DNA from: Escherichia phage WPEC3
DNA: 64,000 nucleotides
Sequence record: PV611058
Strand: one strand, 5' to 3'
Position 1 is the stretch's first letter, and every line of letters begins with the position of its first letter. The position numbers were made by a program, and so were the translations under genes. The notes beneath the pieces were generated by a model. It was given only the letters and a program-made list of their open reading frames with translations, was not told the DNA's origin and ran no database searches. Below, one piece after another: positions 22,806 through 27,208 of this stretch.

Positions 22806-23012
22806 TTACTTCCTATATATAAGCATTAACATATAGTAGTACTGATTATGCTGTACATTCTCTTTAATATTATAAGGGTCTATAGCAATCTCGGTACATC
22901 TGTTAAATGCATAGCTATTAAATGCCAGTACTATTATAGATCTAATCCATGCTTGGTCAGTCGGTGGTAGTTTACTTATATAGTACTCTTTATAGTTTTT
23001 TATGTTCTGCAT
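22806..23012 (-). CDS. small-protein array, subfamily A member (68 aa)
   Basis: ORF; family motif KEYY..KL near N-terminus, aromatic hydrophobic C-terminus ..LIYR. Confidence 0.6.
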   Translation of the reverse strand: MQNIKNYKEYYISKLPPTDQAWIRSIIVLAFNSYAFNRCTEIAIDPYNIKENVQHNQYYYMLMLIYRK

Positions 23013-23023
23013 AGTATACCTTA

Positions 23024-23215
23024 TTATTTCAAAGTACCATATAGTACTCTTAATAGGAAGTAGTACGTATTAGAGATATCATTAGTAGTTAAAACAATCT
23101 TAGTACACATATTAAATTCGTATTGAGTCATTGCCAGGGGGATTAAATTGTTAACCCATGCTTGTTCGTTTTCTTTAAGTTTACTTATATAGAAATCTTT
23201 ATGTTCTTTATTCAT
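23024..23215 (-). CDS. small-protein array, subfamily A member (63 aa)
   Basis: ORF; paralog of neighbours. Confidence 0.6.
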   Translation of the reverse strand: MNKEHKDFYISKLKENEQAWVNNLIPLAMTQYEFNMCTKIVLTTNDISNTYYFLLRVLYGTLK

Positions 23216-23417
23216 ATAGGAATAGTATACCTATGATGCCGGAGTACATATTAGTACTGTTATTATTGGCGTTTGCGTTTAAAGTCATTTGAATACAATT
23301 ATTGTAGCATACTCTGCCGAAATATGTATCAGTACTTAAAGGTGCTGTAGTCCTTAGAAACATTTGTTCTGTGGGGCTGAGGTGTTTGGAATAGAATTCT
23401 TTATGTTCATTATTCAT
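23208..23417 (-). CDS. small-protein array, subfamily A member (69 aa)
   Basis: ORF; paralog of neighbours. Confidence 0.6.
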   Translation of the reverse strand: MNNEHKEFYSKHLSPTEQMFLRTTAPLSTDTYFGRVCYNNCIQMTLNANANNNSTNMYSGIIGILFLYE

Positions 23418-23422
23418 ATTAG

Positions 23423-23608
23423 TTAGTGTCTGTATATAAGTAATAGTAAGAATACGTACTGCACCTGTTCATCTTTAGTATTGAGTACTGTACGTATTGC
23501 GTCATGGAACAAGAATATAGTACTTGGGTCATTAGAATTTAAGGGGTTTACGGGGACGGCGTGTTTGTAGTTCCCTTTAACAAATTGTATATAGTATTCT
23601 CTATGCAT
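23423..23608 (-). CDS. small-protein array, subfamily A member (61 aa)
   Basis: ORF; paralog of neighbours. Confidence 0.6.
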   Translation of the reverse strand: MHREYYIQFVKGNYKHAVPVNPLNSNDPSTIFLFHDAIRTVLNTKDEQVQYVFLLLLIYRH

Positions 23609-23609
23609 A

Positions 23610-23795
23610 TCAGTACCTATATATTAGGGCGAGAATGTAGTACAGTTTATATGTATTATAATCTGGGTTGATAGCACATAGTGTGTGGTAGTGGAATTGT
23701 TTGGTATTTTTCTTATCCTTGATATCTATTGGGTTTAGTGGTATAAGCATTTGGGAGTTTAGTTCCAGATGGCTTAAGTAGAATTCTTTATGCAT
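23610..23795 (-). CDS. small-protein array, subfamily A member (61 aa)
   Basis: ORF; paralog of neighbours. Confidence 0.6.
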   Translation of the reverse strand: MHKEFYLSHLELNSQMLIPLNPIDIKDKKNTKQFHYHTLCAINPDYNTYKLYYILALIYRY

Positions 23796-23804
23796 ATTGT
23801 TCTC

Positions 23805-23993
23805 TTAGTACACGAAAGCTAGGTACAGGGTATGATACAGTACTCGATGATAGCTGTCAAAATCTAGTATACATGCTTTAGTGCACATAGTAAAGTACAC
23901 TTTATCGTTTTGAGCATTGATACCGCGAGGTTTATCTAATAGATTAGTACTGAGGTACATTGGGAAATATTTTGTGTAGTATTCTTTATGCAT
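23805..23993 (-). CDS. small-protein array, subfamily A member (62 aa)
   Basis: ATG at 23993 (MHKEYYTKYF). Confidence 0.6.
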   Translation of the reverse strand: MHKEYYTKYFPMYLSTNLLDKPRGINAQNDKVYFTMCTKACILDFDSYHRVLYHTLYLAFVY

Positions 23994-23994
23994 A

Positions 23995-24183
23995 TTAGTA
24001 CCTGAATATAAGTAGGATAGTGTTATATAATTGGTCATAGCTACTACTATTTTCTATACTGCGTTCTATGCAATTATTGAATCCCAGTACTGCCAAATCG
24101 TTATCCAGGGGGACTTTATATCTGGCGTAGTGTTCAAATATACTGGGGAGAAATTGTGTGTAGTATTCTTTGTGGTTGTTCAT
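23995..24183 (-). CDS. small-protein array, subfamily A member (62 aa)
   Basis: ORF MNNHKEYYTQFL... Confidence 0.6.
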   Translation of the reverse strand: MNNHKEYYTQFLPSIFEHYARYKVPLDNDLAVLGFNNCIERSIENSSSYDQLYNTILLIFRY

Positions 24184-24184
24184 A

Positions 24185-24376
24185 TTAGTACTTATATATT
24201 AGTAAAAGGATGTGATACAGTACTCTATTATAGTCCTCAATATCTATCGAGGATTTAGTGCACTTAATGAAATAGTCTTTTTCGTAGTCTTTTTCTATAC
24301 TCAATTGTTTTGTTGGTACAAGGTGTTGGAGATACATTGGGAGTTTCTCTATGTAGTATTCTTTGTGGTTATTCAT
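24185..24376 (-). CDS. small-protein array, subfamily A member (63 aa)
   Basis: ORF MNNHKEYYIEKL... Confidence 0.6.
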   Translation of the reverse strand: MNNHKEYYIEKLPMYLQHLVPTKQLSIEKDYEKDYFIKCTKSSIDIEDYNRVLYHILLLIYKY

Positions 24377-24384
24377 ATTATGTG

Positions 24385-24558
24385 TTATTTCGTGAAAACA
24401 AGGGTTAGTACTGCATAGTACAAGTCATACGTATCTTTAGGGTTAATAGCACCTTTAATACATTCTTTCATTACTTCATTATAGATAATTTTAGTACTGA
24501 ATGTATTGGATGTTACTATATCGGAATTAAGGTACGAGAGGTAGAATTCTTTATACAT
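24385..24558 (-). CDS. small-protein array, subfamily A member (57 aa)
   Basis: ATG at 24558 (MYKEFYLSYL). Confidence 0.55.
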   Translation of the reverse strand: MYKEFYLSYLNSDIVTSNTFSTKIIYNEVMKECIKGAINPKDTYDLYYAVLTLVFTK

Positions 24559-25597: not shown

Positions 25598-25604
25598 GTC
25601 TACC

Positions 25605-25784
25605 TTAGATTGAGATTAGTTTAAGTACTTCTCTGTACGTGTACTTTTCGTTTTGTGCTTCTACTGTACACGAGAGTAGATAACGTTTTTTATCTCTTTT
25701 GTTCCCGACTGTGTAGTACCTTTGGAATTTATTATAGTTGTATCTATCTTTGTGCTGGAGGTTATAGATATAGAATTCTTGCAT
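25605..25784 (-). CDS. small-protein array, subfamily B member (about 59 aa)
   Basis: short ORF MQEFYIYNLQ... ending VLKLISI; not in ORF track. Confidence 0.5.
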   Translation of the reverse strand: MQEFYIYNLQHKDRYNYNKFQRYYTVGNKRDKKRYLLSCTVEAQNEKYTYREVLKLISI

Positions 25785-25792
25785 AGAGTACC

Positions 25793-25978
25793 TTAGATTG
25801 CTATCAGTTTGAGTACTTCAATATATGTGCGGTACTCTGCTTTAATTAAATTTGTACACACTGTAAGGGAATTTCTTTGTATAAGTTTATTGCCGCTTTT
25901 ATACGCATTTCTCCACACATAGAGATGAGATCTTTCAGGCATAGATAGTTTATTTGTATAGTACTCAAATGTATTCAT
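25793..25978 (-). CDS. small-protein array, subfamily B member (61 aa)
   Basis: ORF ending VLKLIAI. Confidence 0.6.
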   Translation of the reverse strand: MNTFEYYTNKLSMPERSHLYVWRNAYKSGNKLIQRNSLTVCTNLIKAEYRTYIEVLKLIAI

Positions 25979-25986
25979 ATATTACC

Positions 25987-26169
25987 TCAAATAGAGATTA
26001 GTTTAAGTACTTCTCTGTATGTGTACTTTTCGTTTTGTGCATCTCTTGTGCTTGTATATAGGTATCCTCGACGATATTTGTTGCTCCCGTTCTTGTAGTT
26101 GAATTCGAACTTCTTGTAGATGAATCTATCGCCAGGCTGTAATTTACTTAAGTACAATTCAATGCTCAT
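25987..26169 (-). CDS. small-protein array, subfamily B member (60 aa)
   Basis: ATG at 26169 (MSIELYLSKL). Confidence 0.55.
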   Translation of the reverse strand: MSIELYLSKLQPGDRFIYKKFEFNYKNGSNKYRRGYLYTSTRDAQNEKYTYREVLKLISI

Positions 26170-26179
26170 AGTATTCTCT

Positions 26180-26365
26180 TTACATATCAATAAGTTTCAG
26201 TACTGCTCTGTACGTGTACTTAGTTGTTAGTGCTTCTTTTATAGCAATACAGAAGTAATGTTGTTTGTCTCTTATACTACCGCGTTTGTAGTACCATACA
26301 TTGGAGTTGTGGGTGTACTTGTCCCTGTCGGATAGATTTAGGTAATAGTATAATATATGATTCAT
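26180..26365 (-). CDS. small-protein array, subfamily B member (61 aa)
   Basis: ORF ending VLKLIDM. Confidence 0.6.
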   Translation of the reverse strand: MNHILYYYLNLSDRDKYTHNSNVWYYKRGSIRDKQHYFCIAIKEALTTKYTYRAVLKLIDM

Positions 26366-26384
26366 GGTAATGTAATTAGCCTTA

Positions 26385-26573
26385 TTATGTTAAAGTACTC
26401 GTCCCTGGTACACCTTGTAGAATATTATCAACTACATTTTCTTGGTGCAGGATTAATACATTCGGTGCGGTTCTTTTAAGGTTTTTTAAAGTACTGTATT
26501 CTTGTTTAAGGATGAACTGTACATCTTTAGGGAGAATATCTAAGTAGTACTGGTGTATGTTCATTGTTTTCAT
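26385..26573 (-). CDS. small-protein array, subfamily B member (62 aa)
   Basis: ORF. Confidence 0.55.
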   Translation of the reverse strand: MKTMNIHQYYLDILPKDVQFILKQEYSTLKNLKRTAPNVLILHQENVVDNILQGVPGTSTLT

Positions 26574-26584
26574 ATAGTACTCTT

Positions 26585-26770
26585 TTAGAACTTAAAGATG
26601 AGGTTCATGATAGATAAGTACTTAGTTTCAGGAAATTGATGTTCTATTGCATAACGTGTCTCCAGTCTGAAGTCAAATTTATAAAAGGGACTATTCATAT
26701 CCATAGGTTCATTGGGAAATGAATCTCTGTATTGTTTGTGCAGCTTACTACAGTAGAATTCTTTATACAT
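26585..26770 (-). CDS. small-protein array, subfamily B member (61 aa)
   Basis: ORF MYKEFYCSKL... Confidence 0.6.
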   Translation of the reverse strand: MYKEFYCSKLHKQYRDSFPNEPMDMNSPFYKFDFRLETRYAIEHQFPETKYLSIMNLIFKF

Positions 26771-26771
26771 A

Positions 26772-26984
26772 TTAGTGCTCGATTAAAAGGGTTAGGATGT
26801 AATAGTATTGCATACTTTCTACCCCTTGTACAGCATTTCTTATTTTATTATTCCTGTACGAGTTCAAGAGTTTAGGACAATGTTTGAAGTTTATATAATT
26901 ATTTTGTGTATACAGTAGGCTTTCTCGTAGACCTTTTGTTGGTAGTGCATCGATGTAGTACTGTTCAATGTTCATAGTGTTCAT
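26772..26984 (-). CDS. small-protein array, subfamily B member (70 aa)
   Basis: ORF. Confidence 0.55.
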   Translation of the reverse strand: MNTMNIEQYYIDALPTKGLRESLLYTQNNYINFKHCPKLLNSYRNNKIRNAVQGVESMQYYYILTLLIEH

Positions 26985-27208
26985 AGAGCTACCAGTACTA
27001 AGATTTTTGATAATTGTTTATTGCTATTCCCGCAGATGTTGCTGTGTAAAATACTCACTACAAGGGTATCAAGTGCATTGTTCAGCATAAGGTTACATCC
27101 AGTACTGTTATGTGTTTTTAGCTCAATTAGCCACGAACTATCCGCGAGAAACTTCGCGTACTCTAGTTCATTTAGAGTATTGAGGTAGTACTTAAGTGTA
27201 GTTGTCAT
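26981..27208 (-). CDS. small-protein array, first gene (75 aa)
   Basis: ORF; TTGACA-N17-TATAGA promoter and SD AGGAG immediately upstream. Confidence 0.6.
   Translation of the reverse strand: MTTTLKYYLNTLNELEYAKFLADSSWLIELKTHNSTGCNLMLNNALDTLVVSILHSNICGNSNKQLSKILVLVAL

Follow-up and report, generated by a model that had tools for sequence, protein, structure and literature searches.

An array of small, apparently paralogous proteins beside the putative terminal repeat of Escherichia phage WPEC3

The 64,000-nucleotide (nt) stretch of Escherichia phage WPEC3 analysed here (sequence record PV611058; its full length is referred to as the window) carries a densely packed run of very small genes on its minus strand, between positions 22806 and 27208, which raises the question of whether these genes form a single family, whether they are genuine and what their products do for the phage. 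The original prediction, made from the sequence alone, had described about 20 paralogous proteins of about 60 residues. Listing and translation of the open reading frames (ORFs) give 19 small ORFs of 57-75 residues, 18 of which are diverged paralogues while the kinship of the nineteenth, designated gene D, is unproven, together with one embedded gene for a 219-residue protein (24551-25210) that the earlier listing had overlooked. With refined starts, all 20 genes begin with ATG and follow one another at spacings of -8 to +19 nt, in keeping with the tight packing originally noted. The array is a single polycistronic operon of 4.4 kb, read in the order D, C, A, C, six B genes, the 219-residue gene and nine A genes, where A, B and C denote subfamilies (Table 1).

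An alignment of the 19 small sequences displays three collinear motifs, an N-terminal (H)KE[YF]Y..L, a central C[TI] and a C-terminal Y..L.LI, which bears out the shared pattern first described. In leave-one-out tests, in which hidden Markov models (HMMs) searched the full set of 964 stop-to-stop segments in the window, 16 of the 19 members were recovered with an expectation value (E) of at most 2e-5, g26385 at 7e-4, g26772 at 0.01 and gene D (g26981) at 11; the best non-family ORF never scored better than 0.013, and no further members were found elsewhere in the window. Two 59-residue ORFs that had been put forward as members (25221-25400 and 25605-25784) are indeed among those recovered (E of 7e-6 and 3e-12). 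HMMs built from single subfamilies separate three groups, rather than the two originally proposed, with no cross-detection between them: A (ten genes), B (six) and C (two). Subfamily A comprises the nine genes of the distal block and g26585 (E = 3.8e-10 with the A-only HMM and 2e-15 with phrog_11711), B comprises the six genes of the central block and C consists of g26385 and g26772.

The three groups were then connected by a profile-to-profile comparison enriched with homologues from protein databases and from eight related loci. Over their full length, hhalign aligned A with B at a probability of 88% (P = 3e-6), B with C at 63% and A with C at 58%. Intermediates are found in the divergent species vB_EcoM_JNE01 (JNE01), one member of which matches the A HMM at 5e-14 and the B HMM at 3e-6 and a second the C HMM at 3e-9 and the A HMM at 3e-5. 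Because of these profile links and of the JNE01 members that match two subfamily HMMs, we regard A, B and C, on sequence grounds, as one superfamily with 18 members in this genome. The helix order predicted by AlphaFold is identical in A and B. Gene D, which comes first after the promoter in all loci examined, is not demonstrably related to the others: hhalign gives it P = 0.003-0.005 and a probability of 4-7%, and it resembles the family only in two short motifs, LKYYLNTL and KILVLV. The 219-residue protein was also considered as a family member carrying an insertion, and this was rejected (hhalign P = 0.11); it matches phrog_29152 with E = 3e-113. In the PHROG classification, phrog_11711, a profile of 62 positions, matches 10 of the 19 small proteins over its full length at E <= 0.01 (best E = 1.9e-27) and corresponds to subfamily A, whereas that classification reflects neither the kinship of A, B and C nor the architecture of the array; the members of B, C and D gave no PHROG match. 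Both phrog_11711 and phrog_29152 are PHROGs of no known function.

The region is 98.9% identical to that of Escherichia phage WPEC5, and the 36 phage records that match it come exclusively from E. coli or Salmonella; those that carry a taxonomy line belong to Asteriusvirus (121Q/PBECO4-like jumbo phages of ~350 kb). The array genes are annotated in these records as hypothetical proteins or not at all. Many Asteriusvirus records (e.g. BF17, phAPEC6, PBECO4 and Ecwhy_1) lack annotation for a large share of their small genes, and JNE01 likewise has one unannotated member, at L008 7430-7609. An exhaustive search of 1.84 billion representative proteins with the family profile returned 31 matches, of which 30 are 59-69 residues long, those checked for source all coming from the Asteriusvirus clade; the remaining one, a low-complexity repeat protein, is an artefact. 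Two new matches whose genomic context was inspected both lie within the same array architecture. A tblastn search of 50,697 phage records placed the family and the 219-residue gene in an identical set of 35 Escherichia/Salmonella phage records and found the family in none outside these 35 Asteriusvirus records; a fusion to a larger protein was never seen. As far as these searches reach, the family appears to be restricted to the genus Asteriusvirus. The individual proteins are thus already known as database hypotheticals and subfamily A as a PHROG, and the array as a whole is apparently undescribed: no description of the array, the superfamily structure, the fold or the position at the repeat boundary was found in the literature searched, with a targeting that was partly poor.

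The original prediction had made its standing depend on conservation of the reading frames in related genomes, and the frames are kept in 35 of them under purifying selection. The gene order D-C-A-(A/C)-B(2-6)-219-residue gene-A(9-12) is maintained in all eight loci analysed. In JNE01 the order is looser, with a promoter-proximal D-C-C-B-A-B followed by a gene for 224 residues, and reciprocal best hits with the window are collinear over eight positions. Taken against five relatives, the small genes have a pooled ratio of nonsynonymous to synonymous substitution rates (dN/dS) of 0.37-0.44 (dS 0.16-0.23), compared with 0.14-0.19 for the first gene of the neighbouring RCC1-like array at similar dS and 0.14 for one gene of the terminal repeat, the latter at a higher dS of 0.63. 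Gene by gene, the ratio ranges from 0.03 (g23995) to above 1 (g22806, with few synonymous differences). These ratios, 0.37-0.44 against 0.14-0.19, show that the array is under purifying selection and that its proteins evolve two to three times faster than those of flanking genes. The notion that the ORFs are non-functional, either untranslated or decaying remnants, is hardly credible in the face of reading frames kept even in the divergent JNE01, dN/dS values below 1 that fall to 0.03-0.13 for g23995 and g23805, confidently predicted folds for family members, and 20 out of 20 genes with an ATG start and the spacing expected for translational coupling; it can draw on the lack of a recognisable ribosome-binding site (RBS) in several members, on the ORFs left unannotated in many GenBank records and on a frameshift in g26385. 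This gene reads GGGAC in WPEC3 and GGGACC in WPEC5 and BF17, so that the last ~12 codons are out of frame and the C-terminal helix is lost; the deletion could mark a genuine pseudogene or be a sequencing error in a homopolymer.

The number of copies changes between phages, from two to six in B and from nine to 12 in the distal A block. The window and WPEC5, whose flanks are 98.7% identical, differ by precisely one gene unit (~185 nt), and the breakpoints overlap by 11 nt; BF17 has additional insertions of 163-183 nt, nearly the length of such a unit; the order is partly shared with JNE01, beside lineage-specific gains and losses. Tandem Repeats Finder detected no unit-length tandem repeat in the DNA of the array, so the duplications are old rather than recent; the closest paralogue pairs within the genome are 30-52% identical. 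The family evolves by birth and death through recombination at conserved gene junctions.

The structure prediction and profile searches that had been proposed as checks gave a confident fold together with the genus-restricted distribution described above. AlphaFold2 models based on family alignments have a mean predicted local distance difference test (pLDDT) score of 89 both for the A member g24185 and for the B member g25605, and show a short helix at the N-terminus and then three longer ones in an up-down-up unit, so that each product of ~60 residues is predicted to be a soluble four-helix domain. The conserved positions are mainly aromatic or aliphatic and the remaining positions vary between paralogues; the hydrophobic C-terminal helix 4 would presumably form the buried core. 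This bears directly on the earlier suggestion that the proteins are membrane-associated and anchored by their hydrophobic C-terminus, in which aromatic and aliphatic side chains abound over the last 12-15 residues. A Kyte-Doolittle mean of ~1.6 over ~19 residues is the commonly used cutoff for a membrane-spanning segment. The highest 19-residue mean among the small proteins is 1.14, so that none contains a transmembrane segment by this measure, the grand average of hydropathy is negative in 18 of the 19, the hydrophobic segment spans just ~13 residues, and the probable membrane-protein paralogues encoded at 47617-50056 of the window look quite different. Since the models assign the tail to the bundle as its fourth helix, membrane association finds no support and we consider it very improbable.

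Database comparisons leave the fold without a close relative. Pfam gave only sub-threshold noise (EB1 and LytM_N, and Pre-PUA for the 219-residue gene), a sequence profile search of the PDB nothing below E = 0.5, and Foldseek against BFVD only the family's own members, while representatives of A, B, C and D and the 219-residue protein had no PADLOC match at E <= 1. The sole structural resemblances are to fragments of helical alpha-solenoid scaffolds (HEAT, ARM, TOG, VHS, CID). Charge differs between the subfamilies: four of the six B members are strongly basic, with isoelectric points of 9.4-9.7 and net charges of +4.6 to +5.6, and A members are near neutral.

Expression of the operon appears to start from a single site. 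A sigma-70-type promoter lies back to back with the RCC1-like array, as originally reported (TTGACA-17-TACTAT, 27262-27234); both of its hexamers and an embedded palindromic octamer, CAGTACTG, are invariant across eight phages, and it is the sole conserved promoter of the operon. A near-consensus promoter-like site on the same strand at 23860-23832 (TTGACA-17-TATCAT, 11/12 matches), inside g23805 and upstream of g23610, may serve the distal A genes as an internal promoter or may have arisen by chance. The RBSs are largely built from the genes themselves: in the B block, TAAGG is made by the stop codon of the preceding gene, and in the A block the site comes from its penultimate Arg/Lys codon, as A(A/G)G-TAC-T(A/G)A. 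The C-terminal (R/K)-Y of the A proteins is therefore constrained both as protein and as translation signal. A recurrent 'GTACT' before start codons was considered as a separate signal and rejected, because it derives from the (R/K)-Y-stop codons of the preceding gene. About seven genes have no recognisable RBS and presumably depend on translational coupling. Three ORFs start later than listed automatically, their true extents being 23805-23993, 24385-24558 and 25987-26169.

In the window the octamer is present 69 times, where 1.1 copies would be expected, 46 of the copies falling within the first 22.6 kb (1-22602), and it is part of 17 sigma-70-like promoter configurations of the window, 13 of them within the terminal repeat. 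The typical configuration is TTGACA-N8-CAGTACTG-TATAAT, and a GGGGAGAA..TTCTCCCC hairpin often comes next; many further copies lie inside ORFs, four of them in the 219-residue gene (at 24598, 24670, 24734 and 24838). No description of the motif was found in the literature searched, again with partly poor targeting. The extent of the repeat follows from phage fEgEco12, the termini of which were determined with PhageTerm and restriction digests as a direct terminal repeat of 20,993 bp (PMC13070987). Mapped onto the window, they place the inner repeat boundary at 22503 and the outer end at position 1, so that 1-22503 would represent one complete direct terminal repeat and position 1 the physical end of the genome. 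The array is unique sequence outside the repeat, ends 303 bp from it and is transcribed towards it; from the mapped boundary, it is the first transcription unit of the unique region. Ten of the 13 promoter-like sites of the repeat and all five of its ORFs of at least 150 residues point in the same direction as the array.

Asteriusviruses use the host RNA polymerase together with a phage sigma factor (PMC11895373). In the related phage CBB, RpoD-like promoters mark a short early-gene region that runs into the terminal repeat, and late genes carry ATAAATA (PMC5259590). The operon is probably expressed early: its promoter has a sigma-70 consensus and shares CAGTACTG with 13 promoter-like sites of the terminal repeat, it adjoins that repeat, the phage group relies on host polymerase, and the early region of CBB offers an analogy. 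No Asteriusvirus transcriptome was found in the literature, by a search that was poorly targeted.

Timing is also relevant to the RCC1-like array (27280-44553, plus strand), which stands back to back with the operon in every locus examined, JNE01 included. Ten of its 16 genes each have their own near-identical 27-nt element, TAAATAT-RR-TATAATGAATAAAGGAGG, which reads, from its sequence, as a late-like promoter with an RBS; the first gene probably starts at 27311 (MLPFVRM..) rather than at the ATG of the ORF at 27293. The conserved arrangement invites the idea of one co-expanded system, in which the small proteins would be matched to the RCC1-like beta-propeller paralogues as their cognate chaperones, adaptors or inhibitors. 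Asteriusvirus shows an expansion of both families, the related phage GAP32 having one RCC1-like gene (PMC7247149), and there is a weak joint trend in copy number (RCC1-like/small genes: window 16/19, WPEC5 15/20, 121Q ~11-12/16, phAPEC6 11/18 and JNE01 9/16). The numbers are not 1:1, however, and phylogeny confounds the trend (n = 5). A further difference is in promoter class, with one sigma-70-type promoter for the operon versus TAAATAT..TATAAT-AAAGGAGG on ten RCC1-like genes, an element that resembles the late motif reported for CBB (PMC5259590). Moreover, mass spectrometry of phAPEC6 virions detected the RCC1-like gp549 and gp551, and the array proteins gp540c-548c are absent from the retrieved rows of the virion table (PMC7247149); small size alone does not explain this absence, since a 4.7-kDa protein was detectable in the same study. 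We therefore regard a partnership as distinctly unlikely. As the promoter types differ and two RCC1-like proteins were detected in phAPEC6 virions, the two back-to-back arrays are probably of different temporal classes.

These observations lead us to propose, tentatively and at somewhat less than an even chance, that the operon encodes an early, fast-evolving set of small binders of host, defence or competitor proteins. Host RNA polymerase would transcribe it early, together with the terminal-repeat genes that have the same promoter type, and the products would act as accessory binders in host takeover or counter-defence. The many diverged copies would widen the range of targets, and the family would change by gain or loss of whole gene units at the conserved junctions. 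The 'protein-binding modulators' of the original prediction are plausible. Several points weigh against the proposal. The geometry of the operon promoter differs, with CAGTACTG 6 nt past the -35 element and 3 nt before the -10 element, whereas the terminal-repeat promoters place it 8 nt past -35 and 0-1 nt before -10; the timing is read from the promoter consensus and the analogy with CBB only; and a dN/dS of ~0.4 indicates relaxed constraint rather than demonstrated positive selection. No similarity to known anti-defence or host-takeover proteins was found in libraries that did not include a dedicated anti-defence one.

The four strongly basic B members would also fit nucleic-acid binding. 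The products might accordingly be small transcription or translation regulators or nucleoid-associated proteins, possibly recognising CAGTACTG, whose excess in the window and presence both in the operon's own promoter and in the 219-residue gene could be read in this way. We nevertheless consider this unlikely. The A members are near neutral, a single invariant DNA motif would not need 18 diverged paralogues, and a DNA-binding fold is absent: the models gave no structural match to helix-turn-helix or ribbon-helix-helix proteins, and the sequences no match to a Pfam or PHROG regulator profile, the best being phrog_4416 at E = 0.11 for one member.

Tandem, lineage-specific expansion of tiny proteins is a known feature of jumbo phages, with a zinc-ribbon family of ~35 copies in Bacillus phage G (PMC7824862) and 22 paralogous ORFs reported in CBB (PMC5259590). 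The present family resembles these in that a single giant-phage lineage contains a very small protein in many copies, and differs in being all-helical, without a metal-binding motif or a sequence relationship to them, and in forming one contiguous operon with a conserved internal order. A second parallel is the pre-early region of T5, a block of host-takeover genes with sigma-70 promoters in or near the long terminal repeats. The array shares short uncharacterised genes, promoters of host type and a location by the terminal repeat with the T5 region and the early region proposed for CBB, but the genes of the latter two are mostly mutually unrelated whereas the array is a paralogue family, it lies 303 bp outside the repeat and its early timing is deduced.

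Large eukaryotic DNA viruses offer a more distant parallel in their terminal multigene families, among them the multigene families (MGF) of African swine fever virus and the host-range families of poxviruses. These too consist of tandem paralogues by terminal repeats, vary in copy number by whole units between close strains and encode proteins that evolve faster than core genes. There is no homology between them and the array, the phage proteins are far smaller, the host is bacterial and a host-range or immune role is hypothetical here. That the array is a phage counterpart of these families, supplying small helical decoys or inhibitors each tuned to a different host defence or host factor, is a speculative and rather doubtful extension of our proposal; if true, recombination in unit lengths at the conserved gene junctions would enlarge and shrink the set, which would thereby determine host range within E. 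coli and Salmonella.

Some features of the surroundings may be noted. The non-coding region 22000-22805 straddles the terminal-repeat boundary and holds five copies of CAGTACTG, ATGATTACAT-type repeats at 22416-22439 and 22645-22682, and two strong promoter-like sites at 22138-22111 and 22238-22211. It might be a control region related to terminase or replication, and its position is comparable to that of the injection-stop region of T5. At the opposite end of the unique region, just past the left terminal repeat of fEgEco12 (21091-22793), eight small genes of 198-258 nt overlap by 4 nt. At the far end of the RCC1-like block of the window, a second tandem array (47617-50056, minus strand) contains seven packed genes for proteins of 104-123 residues, which, judged by eye, appear to be hydrophobic, probably multi-pass membrane proteins with basic C-termini; equivalent arrays are present in 121Q (genes 224-232) and JNE01. 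Rfam and tRNA scans of the window gave no match.

Table 1. Features of the operon and its flanks, by position in the window, in the order of transcription.
Feature	Position	Strand	Remarks
Sigma-70-type promoter	27234-27262	-	TTGACA, acctTT-CAGTACTG-gtg, TACTAT; 17-nt spacer; 10/12 consensus matches
Gene D	26981-27208	-	75 residues; first gene of operon; strong RBS TAAGGAG
Subfamily C member g26772	26772-26984	-	70 residues; 4-nt overlap with gene D
Subfamily A member g26585	26585-26770	-	61 residues; displaced into promoter-proximal block
Subfamily C member g26385	26385-26573	-	62 residues; 1-nt deletion near 26400
Subfamily B block, six genes	25221-26365	-	59-62 residues; C-terminus ..VLKLIS[IM]
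B genes 1-3	26180-26365, 25987-26169, 25793-25978	-	Subfamily B
B genes 4-6	25605-25784, 25409-25597, 25221-25400	-	Subfamily B
Embedded 219-residue gene, phrog_29152	24551-25210	-	Always between B block and distal A block
Subfamily A block, nine genes	22806-24558	-	57-69 residues; C-terminus ..L.LIY(R/K)Y
A genes 1-5	24385-24558, 24185-24376, 23995-24183, 23805-23993, 23610-23795	-	Subfamily A
A genes 6-9	23423-23608, 23208-23417, 23024-23215, 22806-23012	-	Subfamily A
Non-coding spacer, last gene to putative repeat boundary	22483-22805	.	Boundary 22503 at hairpin GGCAGAGGAAGTCTGCC (22483-22499)

Asteriusviruses are under development as therapeutic coliphages, and for over 80% of their genes no function is known. 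The operon, at ~1.2% of the genome, is among the most variable blocks between otherwise near-identical isolates. Practical corrections to existing records include the genes left unannotated in GenBank, several mis-set ORF starts and the apparent identity of the first 22.5 kb as terminal repeat. If the products are indeed takeover or counter-defence binders, the phage would provide 18 natural variants of one minimal four-helix scaffold, with which the interface between phage and host might be mapped and which could explain differences in host range between isolates.

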